Origin: a virus
Strand: one strand, 5' to 3'
DNA: 15,593 nucleotides
Virus genome (UHGV): UHGV-0078853
Below, piece after piece: positions 3,068 through 12,422 of this stretch; within the stretch, counting starts at the first letter, position 1, and each line of letters starts with the position of its first letter. The translations under genes were made by a program, and so were the position numbers. The notes below the pieces were generated by a model. It was not told where the DNA came from and searched no databases. It saw only the letters and a program-made list of their open reading frames with translations.

Positions 3068-4561
3068 TTACTGCTGGGTGGGGTCTTTTTGCTGCGCCGA
3101 CTGCGGAATCTCCCCAGCCACCTGAGCAACAGCACCTAATGGCAGAGGCGCATCCTCAATAGCGTTCTGAATGTCCTCGTCTGTCCAGTCAGTTACCCCC
3201 GCCTTACGCAACGCAGCATAGTAAGCGGTAGCCGGTAACAGGCCCGCGTTAATATCCGCCATCCACTGCGCGCGGTCCTGAGCGGTCATTGGTTGCAGGA
3301 AGAACTCCATGTTCAGTTTGAACTCAATTTCAGTGCTGTCGCTAATCCCAAGCATACCCGCGACCCAGCGCAACGCATCGGTATACGCCATGCTTACGTT
3401 ACGTGCGATTGTTGCCATAACGGACGTATCAGCGCCGCGTTGCAGGCGTGCCGATTCCGCGGTGATTTGCTGCGTCGGGGTAATAAGCTGTGCACCAATC
3501 TGGATTGCCTGGTTCTCTTTATCCAACATGTTCTGCTTGGCTAGGTTGTTCTCACCGGCCTGGACCAGAAACGCATTGCCGCCGTAACCGATGTTATGGC
3601 CGGAACGTGACCCCATACGCACTCCGTGAGGGTTGGCTTCTTTCCATTGCCCCATGCTCATGTTCTCACCGGGGGCGATGAACAGAGTAGGCTGGCCTAC
3701 GACGAAGCTGGACTCCTCATTGTCCGCGCTGTTGCGGAAGTGCCCGATATTAAGTTCAGCCAACGGCAGCAAAGGTGCATCGTCAGGGGTTGAGTCGTTA
3801 TTCCCTGCACCAATGAATGTGAACGGAATCACCCCGACCGGAATATTACCGAGTTTCGGGAATATTTCGATATAGCCACCTTCCATCAGTGCACCTTTCT
3901 GGTTAAAGCGGTACAGACGCTGGCGATACTGGCCTTCGAAAATATCAAGGACGCGGTATTGCTCGCCGTAGTTGGGGCTGAACTCATCCGCGCCATCGGT
4001 GTACTCGTATTCCTCACGCAATACAACCATAACCACACGATTAACAGACCCGACGCGCTGGAGACGCCAGTTGATGATATTCTCTGCGGTGTAGAAAGCG
4101 ATTGTTGGGTTTAGTAAACCCTCGTTTTGCTCTGCCATGGTAGCTACTTCTACCGCGGGGGCGTCAACCAGCAACCCACCGCGACCAACAGCATCAATCT
4201 CATACAGAGTATCCTGTGCGTGCTGCCACAGGCCAACGCCCGACCCGTCACAGTTAGTGGTCAGGTATTCCATCTGAGACGGAATAATCATCTCGGGGTC
4301 TTTGCGCATTACGCTGCCGACCATGCCTGAAAGCGTTCGCTTGGTGAAGTTGTAGCAAATTGCCCCCGCTTCGTATTCAGCCTGACGCTGGCGACCGTAA
4401 ACCGGGTCCGGCTCGTTCTTACTGACGTCACGTAGATACGATGTCAGGTCGCCAGAAAGAGCATGTCGCACCTTCTGCCACTTAGGGAAATACTCTTCGT
4501 ACTGGCGGTGGCGGGTTTTAACGTTCTGCCCTTGCCCTGCGTTAATGTTTGCGGAAACCAT
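3068..4561 (-). CDS. portal protein
   Basis: 497-aa ORF directly between terminase large subunit and the Mu F-like gene, the canonical portal position; ATG 4561 with AAGAGGA Shine-Dalgarno. Assignment is by size and synteny, not by a recognised motif. Confidence 0.7.
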   Translation of the reverse strand: MVSANINAGQGQNVKTRHRQYEEYFPKWQKVRHALSGDLTSYLRDVSKNEPDPVYGRQRQAEYEAGAICYNFTKRTLSGMVGSVMRKDPEMIIPSQMEYLTTNCDGSGVGLWQHAQDTLYEIDAVGRGGLLVDAPAVEVATMAEQNEGLLNPTIAFYTAENIINWRLQRVGSVNRVVMVVLREEYEYTDGADEFSPNYGEQYRVLDIFEGQYRQRLYRFNQKGALMEGGYIEIFPKLGNIPVGVIPFTFIGAGNNDSTPDDAPLLPLAELNIGHFRNSADNEESSFVVGQPTLFIAPGENMSMGQWKEANPHGVRMGSRSGHNIGYGGNAFLVQAGENNLAKQNMLDKENQAIQIGAQLITPTQQITAESARLQRGADTSVMATIARNVSMAYTDALRWVAGMLGISDSTEIEFKLNMEFFLQPMTAQDRAQWMADINAGLLPATAYYAALRKAGVTDWTDEDIQNAIEDAPLPLGAVAQVAGEIPQSAQQKDPTQQ

Positions 4562-7145: not shown

Positions 7146-7328
7146 TTACCCCACTATCTCATCGCCAAGCCACGCCGTTTCTCGTATATCGTCGACCACA
7201 CAGGCGGCGTGCTCCCGGCTAATTGCAAAAATGTAGAAGCTAAACTTCTTCCCGTCGGCGTCGATATGGTTAACCGAGTAGGGTTTCCACAGGACGCCAT
7301 CGATAACTACGGGTTCAGGCGCTTTCAT
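7146..7328 (-). CDS. hypothetical protein (60 aa)
   Basis: ORF-track entry; ATG 7328 overlaps the end of the upstream gene. Confidence 0.5.
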   Translation of the reverse strand: MKAPEPVVIDGVLWKPYSVNHIDADGKKFSFYIFAISREHAACVVDDIRETAWLGDEIVG

Positions 7329-7563
7329 ACGCTTTACCGCATTTTAAGCATGTGGCTCGATGCACCCCATCAACTAAATGCAGGCGGTAATCATGCTCGC
7401 AGGCGTTCATCTTTTCCTCTTCTCCTCTCAACAACATGAGAAGAACCTTAAATGCGGCTAACTGGTACTCACCGTTAATTGACAGTTGCCCGCCTAACGT
7501 CTGTTTCTCCGACTCAAGCACCAGAATACGGCGCTCGAGCGATGCGATTGTGATTTTAGGCAT
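7315..7563 (-). CDS. hypothetical protein with C-terminal Cys/His cluster (82 aa)
   Basis: Start ATG 7563 with AAAGGTGA Shine-Dalgarno; C-terminus CEHDYRLHLVDGVHRATCLKCGK suggests a small zinc ribbon. Confidence 0.5.
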   Translation of the reverse strand: MPKITIASLERRILVLESEKQTLGGQLSINGEYQLAAFKVLLMLLRGEEEKMNACEHDYRLHLVDGVHRATCLKCGKAYESA

Positions 7564-7741
7564 TGGTGTCACCTTTGTTCAGGTTGAAGCGGTTAATCAG
7601 TTCACGGCGTGTCTCGTATAGCGACTCAACCATTTGCTCGGCTACCGCGATTTTAGTATTCAGGACGTACATCACGTGCCCGATGTCTACGCAGCCGTCA
7701 ACGGCCTCTACCATCATCTTTTCATATTCGCGGTCAGTCAT
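7556..7741 (-). CDS. hypothetical protein (61 aa)
   Basis: Start ATG 7741 overlaps the upstream stop inside the repeated GGAGAGAAGAAATGA junction. Confidence 0.5.
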   Translation of the reverse strand: MTDREYEKMMVEAVDGCVDIGHVMYVLNTKIAVAEQMVESLYETRRELINRFNLNKGDTNA

Positions 7742-9102: not shown

Positions 9103-9403
9103 CTGTGCCTCCTCGACGCGCGATGTATTCTCCAGCGACGATACTGGAGAGACGGGAATAGATAGGCATCCAGAGAATAGCGATGATGAAGCCAAGGCCA
9201 GCGATTTCACGGTCGCCCGCGATACCGAACCATTGAGCCGCGAGAGGTGCGCCAAATACAGCGCAGGCGAAACCAGTAGCAATAAAGCAGAATCCGTCGA
9301 TAGGGCCAGAAATAACGGACTTATGTTGTCGTAGTCCGATGACCCCTCCGGCGAGCGCGGCGGCGAGAAGCCAGCCTGTCACTGTTTCAGTAAATTTATC
9401 CAA
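9095..9403 (-). CDS. holin (3 predicted TMDs, 102 aa), TTG start
   Basis: Three hydrophobic segments and a charged C-terminus (ARRGGTDE). The only in-frame start is TTG 9403, preceded by GGAGGA. First gene of the lysis cassette, upstream of the endolysin. Confidence 0.6.
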   Translation of the reverse strand: MDKFTETVTGWLLAAALAGGVIGLRQHKSVISGPIDGFCFIATGFACAVFGAPLAAQWFGIAGDREIAGLGFIIAILWMPIYSRLSSIVAGEYIARRGGTDE

Positions 9404-9410
9404 GATGAAT

Positions 9411-9446
9411 CCTCCAGGTGCGTATTAAGTACGCAGTAACTGGAGG
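9411..9446 (-). promoter_or_regulatory. interrupted hairpin sequestering the holin Shine-Dalgarno
   Basis: CCTCCAG (9411-9417) pairs with CTGGAGG (9440-9446), with an inner 6-bp stem 9419-9424/9430-9435. On the minus-strand mRNA the holin GGAGG lies in the 3' arm. Confidence 0.45.
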
Positions 9447-9478
9447 ATACCACGGGTAGGAATTATCTTAATAACGGT

Positions 9479-9772
9479 TTATTTATGCCGCCGGATGTAT
9501 TGTCGTCTCTGTGGTTTCGTCGGAATATCATCGTATCCCTGCGATTTCCAGTAATTAAATAACCGATTAGCGATAGCGGCGCGTTCTTGTGTTTTGAACT
9601 CACCGAGATTAACAGCCTTCCCGTTCTGGAATCCACAGGCGCGGATAGCTTTGCGTCTGGTCTGAATCTCCGGGTACAGCGCATTACGGCGGCGCTTGTA
9701 TATCTGTGTTTTAGCTCTCGGCGACAGCGGCGCAAGGCCGCTTCGTTTCAGGATGTCAGTTGCCAGGCTCAT
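9479..9772 (-). CDS. small basic DNA-binding protein, possible AP2-like domain
   Basis: Segment RKAIRACGFQNGKAVNLGEFKTQERAAIANRLFNYW resembles the AP2/ERF-type core (LG-F-T-EE-AA-A) seen in phage AP2 proteins; ATG 9772 overlaps the upstream stop as ATGA. Confidence 0.4.
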   Translation of the reverse strand: MSLATDILKRSGLAPLSPRAKTQIYKRRRNALYPEIQTRRKAIRACGFQNGKAVNLGEFKTQERAAIANRLFNYWKSQGYDDIPTKPQRRQYIRRHK

Positions 9773-9948
9773 AGGTCCAGAATCTCGCGCGCCAATTCAT
9801 CCGTCTTCCAGTCGCACGGACTGTTTACTACCTGCTTAGCAAGCTCACGCAGTTTACGTTCAAGCTCCGCGTAGTCTTCGTATAGGACCCAGCGCCCTTC
9901 CGCGCCCTGAAACATATCGCCGTGGTCGTTTTCGTATCTCTGCACCAT
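9769..9948 (-). CDS. hypothetical small protein, tandem paralog 2 (59 aa)
   Basis: Start ATG 9948 with a GGAG-type Shine-Dalgarno. N-terminus MVQRYENDHGDMFQGAEGRWVLYEDYAELERKL parallels the upstream gene. Confidence 0.5.
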   Translation of the reverse strand: MVQRYENDHGDMFQGAEGRWVLYEDYAELERKLRELAKQVVNSPCDWKTDELAREILDL

Positions 9949-10130
9949 CACTCCACCCCTTCCACATGTGTAACTGACCCACAGTTCGCGCACTCGATGT
10001 AATCCGGGAACTGGTCTTTGTATTTCTGTAACTCAGCTTCGAGTTTCGCGTAATCTTCGTAAAGCACTAACACGCCCTCAACATCAGGAGTAAACCCGAA
10101 TATCTGGTCGTAGGTATATCTCTGTACCAT
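9948..10130 (-). CDS. hypothetical small protein, tandem paralog 1 (60 aa)
   Basis: Start ATG 10130 with an AGGAGA Shine-Dalgarno 7 nt upstream. N-terminus MVQRYTYDQIFGFTPDVEGVLVLYEDYAKLEAEL; C-terminus has a CANCG motif. Confidence 0.5.
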   Translation of the reverse strand: MVQRYTYDQIFGFTPDVEGVLVLYEDYAKLEAELQKYKDQFPDYIECANCGSVTHVEGVE

Positions 10131-10132
10131 AA

Positions 10133-10336
10133 TCACTTCTCCTGATTGCCAAGTCGCTTAGGTGAGCAGATAGCGCGTACCTCCGAATCGTTGGGTTTGT
10201 CACCCTGAAACAGAAAGTGCGCGTTCTCTGCGGCGCGTGCCGCTGACTGGCACGCCTCCATCGAATAAAACGTTTCCGATGCCGCTAGTTGCATCTGGCC
10301 CGCCGACAGTACCCAGATAAATAAGATGCTGGTCAT
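10133..10336 (-). CDS. small membrane or secreted peptide (67 aa)
   Basis: ATG 10336 overlaps the upstream stop (TGATG). Hydrophobic N-terminus MTSILFIWVLSAGQMQLAAS followed by a short soluble region with two Cys. Confidence 0.4.
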   Translation of the reverse strand: MTSILFIWVLSAGQMQLAASETFYSMEACQSAARAAENAHFLFQGDKPNDSEVRAICSPKRLGNQEK

Positions 10337-10881
10337 CAGAAGTATTCCCCGCACGTTTTACATACTTTCGTACCGAACGGCGCGGAGCCACCTGTTATTA
10401 CATAATAGAAACTGTGTTTGCACTCCTGTGTACAGGCTGTTGCCCCATACTCAAGTCCGTCCCACTCACGCTTGCCGCATTCGCAGCAAAACCGGCTACC
10501 GGGCACGTTGTCCTTGTGGCCTTCGGCAATAAACAATCCTGGAGTGATAATCCAATTGTGGTCACATTCCTGCGTATCTTCTTTTCGGCAACCAGATTGC
10601 TCCGAACCGTACGCACCTTTGCGGATAAGTTTGTATGCCTCCACGTCACCAGTAGCCTCGACCAATGCCAGATGCAACTCCTTAACTTGCCCTGTCAGGT
10701 GCGATATGTGCTCAGATTTCTTAATGTTGTCTTCCCGCAACTCCTTAATCTGCGCCGACGCATCACGTAACTGATTCTTAAGTGACTGCACCTCATGCGC
10801 CAGGTCTTCGCTCCGGCTGTTATTTACCTGCTGCCGTAGCTGGTAGATCAGGTACTCGAATATTTCGTTTTTGTTACTCAT
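10336..10881 (-). CDS. coiled-coil protein with C-terminal Cys/His-rich (zinc-binding-like) domain (181 aa)
   Basis: Start ATG 10881 (MSNKNEIF...) with an AAGGGG Shine-Dalgarno. N-terminal half is heptad-like and charged; C-terminal half has CDHNW, CCECG, CTQECKH and CKTCG clusters. Confidence 0.6.
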   Translation of the reverse strand: MSNKNEIFEYLIYQLRQQVNNSRSEDLAHEVQSLKNQLRDASAQIKELREDNIKKSEHISHLTGQVKELHLALVEATGDVEAYKLIRKGAYGSEQSGCRKEDTQECDHNWIITPGLFIAEGHKDNVPGSRFCCECGKREWDGLEYGATACTQECKHSFYYVITGGSAPFGTKVCKTCGEYF

Positions 10882-11011
10882 CAGCTTCACCCCTTTTCTC
10901 ATCCACCCCGACTAGCAGCGATTTAGTGTCGCCGTCACACACCGAAGTGCTACTAATTATTTCGTAAGCGTCTACCAGTTCGCCTAAAGTCCAGCTACCG
11001 TACCGGCCCAT
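10874..11011 (-). CDS. hypothetical micro-protein (45 aa)
   Basis: ATG 11011 preceded by an AGGAG Shine-Dalgarno; its stop overlaps the start of the downstream gene; hand-translated. Confidence 0.3.
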   Translation of the reverse strand: MGRYGSWTLGELVDAYEIISSTSVCDGDTKSLLVGVDEKRGEADE

Positions 11012-11041
11012 CTCTGTCTCTCCTCTCGCTTGTGTAAATGA

Positions 11042-11070
11042 ATAGTAGCCTATTCTATCTTAGTGTGCAA
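11042..11070 (-). promoter_or_regulatory. internal promoter, TTGCAC-N17-TACTAT family (minus strand)
   Basis: Minus-strand -35 TTGCAC at 11070-11065 and -10 TACTAT at 11047-11042; same hexamers, spacing and flanking AATAGGnTACTATTCA as the promoter at 12335-12363. Confidence 0.45.
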
Positions 11071-11076
11071 GTAAAT

Positions 11077-11250
11077 TTATTGGTGTGTTATGGAGTCGAT
11101 GAATGCCAGTAACTCCCTTTCCGCTTCTGCCTCTCTTTCTTCAAGCGACCAGGTAGCGGATTCCTCTGTCGCCGTTGCTAAATCGGTTTTCGCATCAACC
11201 ATCGTGTCGATTAACGTGATTAGTCGTTCAGCCTGTTCTTTAGTAATCAT
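11077..11250 (-). CDS. hypothetical small acidic protein (57 aa)
   Basis: ATG 11250 with an AGGAGA Shine-Dalgarno 7 nt upstream; below the track size cut-off. Confidence 0.4.
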   Translation of the reverse strand: MITKEQAERLITLIDTMVDAKTDLATATEESATWSLEEREAEAERELLAFIDSITHQ

Positions 11251-11384
11251 TGTTGCATCTCCTGCAATAGTCGCTTCGATTGTTGCGTTTGATGAAAGTG
11301 TCGCCTTTTGACGACACTAAGTTAAAGTTGTACGCTGCTGTGTGGCAGCGTAAGTCACTCAGTAAAATCCCAAACTATTGAACA

Positions 11385-11585
11385 TCACACTTCTGGCGGC
11401 TCGGGTAACGGCATCCAGTGCGTCACGTACTTATCGTAGTGATTCCAGAAAGGCTTTCTCCCGTCATCAGGAACTATGTAATAATCGTGCTGAACTGCGT
11501 TATTTAACGTTTCATACACCAGGAACTCTTTATCCGTATACCCATTACCCGGCAGCATCTCACTACACTTAATCCACTCACCCAT
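11385..11585 (-). CDS. DUF551-like phage protein (66 aa)
   Basis: N-terminal WIKCSEMLPG and C-terminal VTHWMPLPEPP match the DUF551 pattern common in phage early regions; ATG 11585 with an AGAGGTG Shine-Dalgarno. Confidence 0.65.
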   Translation of the reverse strand: MGEWIKCSEMLPGNGYTDKEFLVYETLNNAVQHDYYIVPDDGRKPFWNHYDKYVTHWMPLPEPPEV

Positions 11586-11733
11586 ACCTCACACCTCTTT
11601 CAATCAAGGATTGCACACCAGCTTTCCACGCCCGCCACGCGAGACGCGTCTTAACGTTCAGGTACTCTTTCTTTGAACCCTTGTTAACCGGCAGACCCTC
11701 GACCACAGCCCACCGTTCAAATGCTTCTCTCAT
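11578..11733 (-). CDS. hypothetical small protein (51 aa)
   Basis: ATG 11733 overlaps the upstream stop (ATGA); translation MREAFERWAVVEGLPVNKGSKKEYLNVKTRLAWRAWKAG...; stop overlaps the next start. Confidence 0.4.
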   Translation of the reverse strand: MREAFERWAVVEGLPVNKGSKKEYLNVKTRLAWRAWKAGVQSLIERGVRYG

Positions 11734-11908
11734 ACCAGAACCTCACATTCATCCAGATACACGAACAATAACGACCCTTTGTACTCAATCATAAAACCAT
11801 AATGGTTGATGCTGAACGCCGGAAAAACATCACCTACCGAGATACCGAAATCTATAAGCCTGCGGTCAGTTATACGGACAAGCCTGCGGTCAGTTATACG
11901 GATTCGCA
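11730..11908 (-). CDS. hypothetical protein with internal 8-aa tandem duplication (59 aa)
   Basis: Likely start ATG 11908 (GGGAGG upstream); N-terminus MRIRITDRRLVRITDRRLIDFG encoded by a 24-bp tandem repeat. Confidence 0.5.
11857..11904. repeat. 24-bp tandem direct repeat, 2 copies (22/24 identical)
   Basis: agcctgcggtcagttatacggaca followed immediately by agcctgcggtcagttatacggatt; in-frame within the CDS 11730-11908. Confidence 0.9.
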
Positions 11909-12109
11909 TTAACGGCAACCTCCCTCAGAGTCGTCGGCACAAGCATCACGATTCGATGCCGTTTTGATTGCCTGTAAGCTATTTAGCATTTGCTGGCTAT
12001 CCATCGTAATAATTGTAATCCCGTCTGATAAATGCACCTCGTAGCGTTCAGCTACGAAATATATTTCCTCGAAATCATGATGTTTCAGTTCTTCAAATAA
12101 TTCTTCCAT
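11909..12109 (-). CDS. hypothetical acidic protein (66 aa)
   Basis: ATG 12109 with an AAGGGG Shine-Dalgarno; overlaps the upstream stop (TGATG). Confidence 0.5.
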   Translation of the reverse strand: MEELFEELKHHDFEEIYFVAERYEVHLSDGITIITMDSQQMLNSLQAIKTASNRDACADDSEGGCR

Positions 12110-12300
12110 CACTTCGCCCCTTTAAATTTAAAATTGTTGCCGATGAGTTTTAAGTTCTCCTCTTCTACGTATATTTGTGAATTTACCCCTCTCACCTTTT
12201 GCACGGTCACTACGTACTCACCGGGAAATAAATTAGATTTTAATTCAATTATGCCGTGTTCACCGTCGGCGCATTTAACCAACTGACCATTCTTAAACAT
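12109..12300 (-). CDS. hypothetical protein (63 aa), first gene of the leftward early operon
   Basis: ATG 12300 (or GTG 12309) with a GGAG Shine-Dalgarno; translation MFKNGQLVKCADGEHGIIELKSN... Confidence 0.5.
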   Translation of the reverse strand: MFKNGQLVKCADGEHGIIELKSNLFPGEYVVTVQKVRGVNSQIYVEEENLKLIGNNFKFKGAK

Positions 12301-12334
12301 AACCCTCACTCCTCTGTCTCGTTCCGATAAGTGA

Positions 12335-12363
12335 ATAGTATCCTATTATGTTGGGGCGTGCAA
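12335..12363 (-). promoter_or_regulatory. promoter proximal to the early-left operon, TTGCAC-N17-TACTAT (minus strand)
   Basis: Minus-strand -35 TTGCAC at 12363-12358 and -10 TACTAT at 12340-12335; dyad AATAG-N4-CTATT overlaps the -10. Confidence 0.5.
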
Positions 12364-12422
12364 GAGATTAGTTACGTTGCCGTTGTGATTCTTTCGTTTC
12401 TTAAAGGAGTACGCAACGCAGT

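Follow-up and report, generated by a model that had tools for sequence, protein, structure and literature searches.

A gene for a 181-residue protein, found in a window of 15,593 nucleotides (the whole stretch of DNA that was analysed), joins a conserved N-terminal coiled coil to a C-terminal array of small Cys/His modules. Related phages swap these modules as cassettes, which extend from a conserved linker to the start codon of the gene that follows. The diversity of this gene comes from the exchange of discrete modules and not from point mutation. The feature is real and non-random. The 181-aa protein is an accessory protein specific to the Guernseyvirinae, and its gene belongs to a long operon of small genes that runs leftward and precedes the lysis cassette. 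What is new, as far as can be judged from the sequences, is a putative coiled-coil zinc-ribbon protein in which a combinatorially shuffled array is associated with a strictly conserved coupling to the downstream gene. We tentatively propose that it could be an accessory oligomer that binds proteins in a zinc-dependent manner and is directed at a host factor that varies.

The window is part of the genome of a Kagunavirus-like siphophage of the Guernseyvirinae, and bases 9400-12400 are 96-97% identical to Kagunavirus phages, e.g. vB_EcoS_fKuEco01 and K1ind2/3. In an annotated near-identical genome, the region is a one-directional run of small 'hypothetical' genes that originates at a divergent regulatory region, beside HTH and helicase-primase genes, and leads into two holins and an endolysin, followed by further small genes. 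In the window, terminase, portal, and head genes come after, on the same strand. The two holin genes are found three genes downstream of the pair formed by the gene for the 181-aa protein and that for the 67-aa protein which follows it (Table 1). Neighboring genes overlap at six of the 11 junctions of this block in the annotated near-identical phage and are at most 4 nt apart at two others; therefore, overlap is the local norm. A scan for promoters and terminators detected no minus-strand (coding-strand) site close to the gene pair, which is consistent with an internal position in an operon and proves nothing.

Table 1. Coordinates of the features of the 181-aa and 67-aa genes in the window.
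Feature	Position	Strand	Basis
CDS of the 181-aa protein, member of phrog_6094	10339..10881	-	TGA at 10336-10338; PHROG match; 1316 homologue clusters
N-terminal helical coiled-coil part, residues 1-91	10609..10881	-	Heptads, AlphaFold2 helix, invariant residues
Two 17-nt direct repeats encoding (I/V)KEL, 63 nt apart, flanking a 21-aa segment	10674-10690 and 10737-10753	.	Repeat search; alignment indel
Conserved linker E94-QSGCRKEDTQ-E105, before the first module; upstream boundary of cassette exchange	10567..10602	-	Conservation and breakpoints
Module 1, type A: C106-D-H108-N-W…C132-C-E-C135-G136, 30-residue span	10474..10566	-	Motif and module census
Module 2, type G: C154-K-H156-S-F…C174-K-T-C177-G178	10348..10422	-	Motif and module census
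GGGGA, Shine-Dalgarno-like, in codons G178-E179	10346..10350	-	9 nt upstream of the 67-aa ATG; formed by the codons of the last Cys-Gly knuckle
CDS of the 67-aa protein, phrog_3766 (function unknown)	10136..10336	-	Stop 10133-10135; PHROG match; 475 phage records

The 181-aa gene is on the minus strand and extends from an ATG at 10881, preceded by the Shine-Dalgarno-like sequence AAGGGG, to 10339, the end of its last codon. The homologues also start with MSNKNE. The ATG at 10902 was rejected as a start codon since homologues align from 10881. An initial sequence-only reading had described the N-terminal half as charged and heptad-like, and this was borne out: a single heptad register runs without break through residues ~27-83, about eight heptads, with V31, L38, I45, N52, I59, V66, L73, and V80 at the a positions and L27, L34, A41, L48, K55, L62, L69, A76, and Y83 at the d positions. 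AlphaFold2 (46 input sequences for the full-length protein and 56 for the C-terminal half) modeled residues 2-88 as helical with moderate confidence, the block-mean pLDDT being mostly 71-86. In the alignment of the family, residues 1-45 are the best conserved part, and E9, L11, Q14, L15, R16, Q17, E30, S33, L34, and L38 are invariant in the N-terminal part. The linker EQSGCRKEDTQE, which has alignment columns conserved at 90% or more, is also present in the distant relatives P0177 and P0183.

The nine Cys residues of the 181-aa protein are confined to its 84 C-terminal residues (P = 8e-4 if placed at random). The four Cys/His clusters seen in the sequence-only reading are present, and they pair up as two C-x-H-x-[W/F]…C-x-x-C-G modules (residues 106-136 and 154-178), a pattern that arose by chance in 7 of 200,000 shuffles of the whole protein and in 15 of 200,000 shuffles of the C-terminal half. 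The additional residues C98, C133, and C150 leave several choices for the exact ligand set. When the 15.6-kb window was translated in six frames, the module pattern appeared three times, twice in the 181-aa gene and once at 7318-7572. The third occurrence corresponds to a small gene encoding an 85-aa protein with a conserved N-terminus and a swappable C-terminus, for which non-Cys alternatives exist. Comparison of the 85-aa and 181-aa proteins by BLASTP was not significant (E = 0.3), and a common origin of their modules is therefore not supported.

Modules were surveyed in the 181-aa protein and 120 homologues (121 proteins), homologue lengths ranging from 106 to 258 residues. Of 237 CxxC motifs, 230 were preceded by a CxH located 6-34 residues upstream; among the other seven, five were a WPY variant of one module type. 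Greedy clustering distinguished at least 23 module types and 49 architectures among the 121 proteins, with zero to four modules per protein. Type A, which precedes type G in the window protein, is the commonest (80 copies in the 121 proteins). Each type is well conserved wherever it is found, and arrays of up to four modules are maintained. Among 208 unique modules, Trp was present at +4 after CxH in 91% and Gly followed CxxC in 98%; the loops were unrelated, and the residues upstream tended to K-E-D-T-Q-E. The ligand pattern is the single feature common to all modules. Forms without a module or with one module exist naturally (P0088 and P0011; also the locus L007 described below), as do truncated or split forms. 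The Jerseyvirus wksl3 protein contains one module followed by a non-Cys C-terminal domain, which resembles DUF551 by eye, and the Cornellvirus FSL SP-031 encodes the stalk and the modules on separate ORFs.

Zinc ribbons are made of two two-ligand knuckles with a short loop between them, and CxH and CxxC display this arrangement throughout the census. Based on the ligand pattern, the modules would belong to the class of mini zinc ribbons with Cys-His-Cys-Cys ligands. The sequence-only reading had proposed one or two zinc sites and had made this proposal depend on conservation of the Cys residues in homologues. The conservation of the ligand pattern in modules of otherwise unrelated sequence argues for such sites. 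In some homologues, the WPY variant replaces CxH in module G, so that two ligands are missing, and zinc is therefore not essential to every module. The modules were modeled by AlphaFold2 with low confidence, unlike the helix (pLDDT below 50 when the whole protein was modeled, and 52 on average when the C-terminal half was modeled by itself). Both runs placed short strands after CxH and before CxxC in the two modules (pLDDT about 40-60), as would be expected for a zinc ribbon. Foldseek searches of the PDB with the C-terminal model returned nothing at E < 1. A profile built from 36 diverse modules gave marginal matches to PDB sequences, led by zinc ribbons (S27e, E = 0.005; RPB12, E = 0.017).

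The sole family match of the 181-aa protein was phrog_6094, of unknown function (E = 1.5e-66, residues 1-181 aligned with profile positions 1-141 of 142). A match to a well-known family would have spoken against the sequence-only reading, and none was found in Pfam, NCBIfam, PADLOC, or the PDB: the family searches returned coiled-coil noise and sub-threshold zinc-ribbon matches only, and the PDB sequence search returned coiled coils only. In PADLOC-DB, the 181-aa protein only weakly resembled SMC-like coiled coils, and the module half and the 67-aa protein had no match. Nor did the 181-aa protein match the Lar restriction-alleviation family (PF14354). A neighboring 62-aa protein gave a sub-threshold match to the latter profile (E = 0.15; 12.8 bits for a cut-off of 28.6). 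A search of 5.8 billion proteins identified 1316 clusters of homologues, mostly on contigs of 40-45 kb, all of them without a name or 'hypothetical', and thus no annotation names a function. With the 90 C-terminal residues as the query, HMMER gave 14 matches among 1.84 billion representatives, 11 of them in the family and three to unrelated Cys-rich proteins, and hence identified no relatives in other protein contexts. The family matches included a divergent branch with another N-terminus and the same linker and modules. In phage records, the 181-aa protein, or putative zinc protein, was detected in 228 cases and the 67-aa protein in 475, a difference that partly reflects divergent forms missed by tblastn, as wksl3 shows. 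A literature search covering Guernseyvirinae, Kagunavirus, Jerseyvirus, zinc ribbons, anti-defence, and domain shuffling found nothing on the 181-aa gene.

Breakpoints were mapped by blastn comparison of the window with 16 related loci. In several loci, homology stopped at 10604-10552, in the linker region. In L010-L015 it returned precisely at the ATG of the 67-aa gene (10336), and in L016 at 10337. Two further breakpoints, 10737 and 10685, delimit a segment of 21 residues, corresponding to three heptads, which is absent from many homologues. The length of the stalk varies in multiples of 21 residues, and an insertion of about 50 residues is present in the coiled coil of some members. At 90% identity, the 1316 clusters of the 181-aa protein compare with 49 for the 67-aa gene and 43 for a 97-aa gene two genes further downstream, i.e. 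about 27-30 times more than for these two neighbors. Within the 16 related loci, the 67-aa protein was 92-98% identical in nearly all cases, as compared to 41-97% for the zinc protein. In one metagenomic genome (L007), an in-frame deletion fuses residue 94 of the zinc protein to residues 53-67 of the 67-aa protein, with loss of the modules and of the greater part of the 67-aa gene. In another locus, the zinc gene is intact and the adjoining 67-aa gene is truncated. The modules and the 67-aa gene therefore appear dispensable, and the pair is not obligate.

The overlap between the stop codon of the 181-aa gene and the start codon of the 67-aa gene, noticed in the sequence-only reading, was confirmed: the TGA shares 1 nt with the ATG at 10336-10334 (TGATG). 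An overlap of 1 or 4 nt was present in 17 of the 17 intact loci that were measured, whatever the last module, and the Cornellvirus junction overlaps likewise (ATGA). In loci ending with a module, the last Cys-Gly codons (TGY-GGN) provide a Shine-Dalgarno-like purine run roughly 9-17 nt upstream of the ATG. Translational coupling would thus survive cassette exchange. A GTG at 10354 was rejected as the start of the 67-aa gene because the ATG at 10336 is where DNA homology between phages begins, and the residues ahead of it vary from phage to phage. The hydrophobic N-terminus attributed to the 67-aa protein is present, as a moderately hydrophobic stretch of ~18 residues (Kyte-Doolittle value of about 1.5 in a 15-residue span) in which Ser, Ala, Gly, and Gln are frequent. 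It contains a possible A-A-S cleavage motif, for which a divergent homologue has E-G-T at the cleavage position, and the conserved ATG start leaves no charged n-region. The protein contains two invariant Cys residues, C29 and C56, in a tail otherwise devoid of Cys. Together with the hydrophobic N-terminus, these residues suggest export and formation of a disulfide in the periplasm, a compartment other than that of the putative cytoplasmic zinc modules.

According to the explanation that we propose, the conserved N-terminal head and the continuous coiled coil probably join two or more chains in parallel. The linker would then be followed by an array of one to four mini zinc ribbons of the form [DTQE]-C-x-H-x-W, 10-23 residues, C-x-K-C-G, each probably binding one Zn through Cys-His-Cys-Cys. 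The stalk would remain constant and the displayed binding surface would vary with the exchanged cassettes; the specificity of the protein would change accordingly by cassette exchange. The 181-aa protein would be a cytoplasmic, multivalent, zinc-dependent binder of proteins rather than of nucleic acids, and its target would probably be a host factor that varies between strains, e.g. a target of counter-defence or of host takeover. The 67-aa protein would be co-transcribed and translationally coupled, the terminal Cys-Gly codons supplying its ribosome-binding site, and, if it is a physical partner, it would have to touch the constant part and not the modules. The sequences show the anatomy of the protein, the conserved ligand pattern, the shuffling of modules, the breakpoints, the hyperdiversity, and the conserved overlap; zinc binding, the oligomeric state, the protein nature of the target, and involvement in interaction with the host are inferred. 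A constant head and stalk, a linker, and swappable modules fit a scaffold displaying exchangeable binding units, and hyperdiversity generated by cassettes in a dispensable, non-structural small gene fits an encounter with a variable factor of the host or of a competitor.

It is unlikely, in our estimate, that the two genes form one functional unit, in which a variable cytoplasmic zinc-ribbon sensor or adaptor would act with the 67-aa protein as a membrane or periplasmic effector, for instance in superinfection exclusion against competing phages or in the control of lysis timing. The sequence-only reading had likewise envisaged action with a membrane partner. The adjacency and overlap of the two genes in every intact locus examined (Kagunavirus, Jerseyvirus, Cornellvirus, and one more distant relative) lend some weight to this idea, as does the one natural deletion, in which the loss of the modules is accompanied by that of most of the 67-aa gene. 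The position of the pair relative to the holin genes is also in its favor. The RI protein of phage T4, which acts in lysis inhibition, has a weakly hydrophobic signal-anchor-release N-terminus, and the moderate hydrophobicity and the Ser/Ala/Gly/Gln-rich composition of the 67-aa N-terminus are similar, in agreement with the variant based on lysis timing. However, overlaps are common in the operon, and adjacency says little because the whole block is syntenic. The modules change without a matching change in the 67-aa protein, the breakpoint lies at its ATG, the two genes evolve in opposite ways (1316 clusters against 49), and one locus pairs an intact zinc gene with a truncated partner. Furthermore, if the invariant Cys residues form a disulfide, the 67-aa protein would be periplasmic whereas the zinc modules would be cytoplasmic. 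The more elaborate proposal of a two-gene phage system, in which a zinc-ribbon recognition array rebuilt from cassettes of about two dozen module types would be coupled to a conserved envelope effector, is one to which we assign a low probability. Such a system could respond by excluding competing phages or by deciding when lysis occurs.

A role in regulation through nucleic acids, with an oligomeric zinc-ribbon array reading DNA or RNA with a specificity set by the modules present, is in our view quite unlikely. Tandem zinc-finger arrays and the Com zinc-finger translational activator of phage Mu provide parallels for such reading, and the tandem modular array with its conserved linker recalls finger arrays. 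The marginal structure and sequence neighbors include ribosomal and RNA polymerase zinc ribbons, and the homologue P0116 is labeled 'predicted nucleic acid-binding Zn-ribbon protein' in one source, although this label is automatic. With a median pI of 5.4 and a mean charge of -0.04 per residue, the part that contains the modules is on average acidic, unlike typical nucleic-acid binders, which argues mildly for protein targets. Profile searches detected no helix-turn-helix and no known nucleic-acid-binding family, and free swapping of recognition modules would be unexpected if the targets were conserved phage genes.

We find it very doubtful that the C-terminus is a neutral cap devoid of a specific target, any stable zinc knuckle being sufficient to stabilize a functional N-terminal coiled coil and the shuffling resulting from neutral recombination at a hotspot. 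Hyperdiversity produced by recombination could also mean relaxed constraint on module identity, the 45 N-terminal residues are the most conserved, and natural forms have no or one module. The unrelated 85-aa gene at 7318-7572 likewise combines a conserved N-terminus with a swappable C-terminus. A neutral cap does not readily account for the good conservation of the module types, for a ligand pattern kept in 208 unique modules, for the maintenance of arrays of up to four modules, or for a linker conserved even in distant relatives. Finally, a broad anti-restriction role is unlikely since Kagunavirus phages are reportedly highly sensitive to restriction-modification systems (PMC11990801), and a RiPP precursor, with repeated Cys-rich cores after a leader, was set aside as there are no modification enzymes nearby and Cys-His-Cys-Cys would be typical of metal sites.

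The Guernseyvirinae, including Kagunavirus and Jerseyvirus, are common, small phages used in therapy, biocontrol, and synthetic biology, and no role is known for most of their small non-structural genes. No other gene of the operon comes close to the 181-aa gene in diversity, and module swapping in phages is usually seen in proteins that meet variable molecules of the host or of competitors. If binding specificity is determined by the modules, the family would offer a natural collection of very small binders, stabilized by metal and built on a common scaffold, and would also mark which host factor limits these phages. If they have no specific target, the gene would still be a clear recombination hotspot with defined junctions. 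A two-gene system, if true, would amount to recombination-driven switching of specificity in a virulent phage, outside the virion proteins.

Several known systems resemble the 181-aa protein in part. CT398/HP0958 (FlgZ), of COG1579 (PF24481 and PF02591), is likewise a small cytoplasmic protein with a long coiled coil followed by a zinc ribbon, and the automatic source label of one homologue points to COG1579. However, the window protein did not match the PF24481 or PF02591 profiles; PF24481 was found in one homologue only (E = 0.009; 16.3 bits for a cut-off of 27) and PF02591 was not matched. The putative ligands are Cys-His-Cys-Cys instead of C4, the ribbons are multiple and shuffled, and unbroken heptads with steps of 21 residues fit a straight coil rather than an antiparallel hairpin. 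Proteins of the DksA/TraR type (PF01258), which are also encoded by phages, combine a coiled coil and a zinc finger in a small protein. PF01258 gave no match at E-values up to 10 for the C-terminal half or 1 for the full-length protein, and DksA has a C4 finger and an antiparallel hairpin that is inserted into RNA polymerase, whereas the 181-aa protein has tandem CHCC modules on a stalk of variable length.

The zinc ribbons of Rpb9/RPA12, S27e, L40e, and RPB12 are likewise modules of 20-30 residues formed by beta-hairpin knuckles and ending with CxxCG, and they are the sole solved structures touched by the module profile or by the low-confidence model. These matches are marginal (E of at least 0.005 for the profile; E > 1 for Foldseek), and the first knuckle of the 181-aa modules is CxH, followed by a near-invariant Trp, and not CxxC. 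The CHC2 zinc finger of primases (PF01807) likewise presents its ligands in the order Cys, His, Cys, Cys. Its spacing is CxxH…CxxC, as compared to CxH…CxxC in the 181-aa protein, the context is unrelated, and there was no Pfam match. By analogy, phage receptor-binding proteins and eukaryotic C2H2 arrays also combine a constant scaffold with modules recombined at conserved junctions into many architectures. This likeness concerns the evolutionary mode only, as the 181-aa gene lies outside the structural (virion) region and is unrelated to these proteins in sequence and fold.

A natural deletion was found in L007, the corresponding locus of a related phage (a 41-kb viral contig), at positions 3983-4330 of that locus. 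The deletion is in frame: residue 94 of the zinc protein is followed directly by the C-terminal 15 residues of the 67-aa protein (residues 53-67), with a Ser-Glu microhomology common to both ends at the junction. The N-terminal coiled coil of the zinc protein is intact in the fusion. The homologue from Salmonella phage wksl3 contains one putative zinc module followed by a C-terminal domain of non-Cys type, a candidate DUF551-like domain as judged by eye. In Cornellvirus FSL SP-031, two adjacent ORFs encode a 130-aa coiled-coil part and an 81-aa two-module part, an arrangement that could reflect a split gene or a frameshift.

Coordinates of the features within the window and in related loci (L018 and L019, own coordinates)
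Feature	Coordinates	Strand	Match or source
45-aa gene upstream of the 181-aa gene	10877-11011		phrog_35344
First small gene 3' of the 67-aa gene	9951-10136	minus	phrog_29624
Second small gene 3' of the 67-aa gene	9772-9993	minus	phrog_29624
85-aa ORF	7318-7572	minus	phrog_9023
Nested gene pair, candidate Rz/Rz1 spanins	656-1151	minus	ORF translations
Zinc-protein homologue, Salmonella phage wksl3	L018 1199-1804		
Zinc-protein homologue region, FSL SP-031 (Cornellvirus)	L019 1160-1804		

The start of the zinc gene is overlapped over 8 nt (10874-10881, minus strand) by the upstream 45-aa gene. Thus, the zinc gene is coupled on both sides. The two small genes located downstream from the 67-aa gene are paralogues since both match phrog_29624; their copy number (0-2) and sequence differ among related loci. 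The protein encoded by the first ends with a CANCG motif and matched the Lar restriction-alleviation family below threshold (E = 0.15).

Outside the 181-aa gene, the only CxH…CxxC match in the window was the 85-aa ORF, which encodes a helical N-terminus and a single C-terminal module (CEHDY…CLKCG). On a smaller scale, this ORF matches the mode of the 181-aa protein, with a constant N-terminus and an exchanged C-terminus. Residues 1-50 are conserved in related loci. Comparison of the 85-aa and 181-aa proteins by BLASTP revealed no significant similarity (E = 0.3). The C-terminus of the 85-aa protein consists, in related loci, of another such module or a non-Cys sequence, or is missing.

The nested gene pair is located ca. 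7 kb downstream from the holin-endolysin cassette, past the terminase, portal, and head-morphogenesis ORFs. The outer ORF (128 aa) encodes an N-terminal hydrophobic stretch and the embedded ORF (87 aa) a lipobox-like LTLSAC motif, such that the pair looks like putative Rz/Rz1 spanins.
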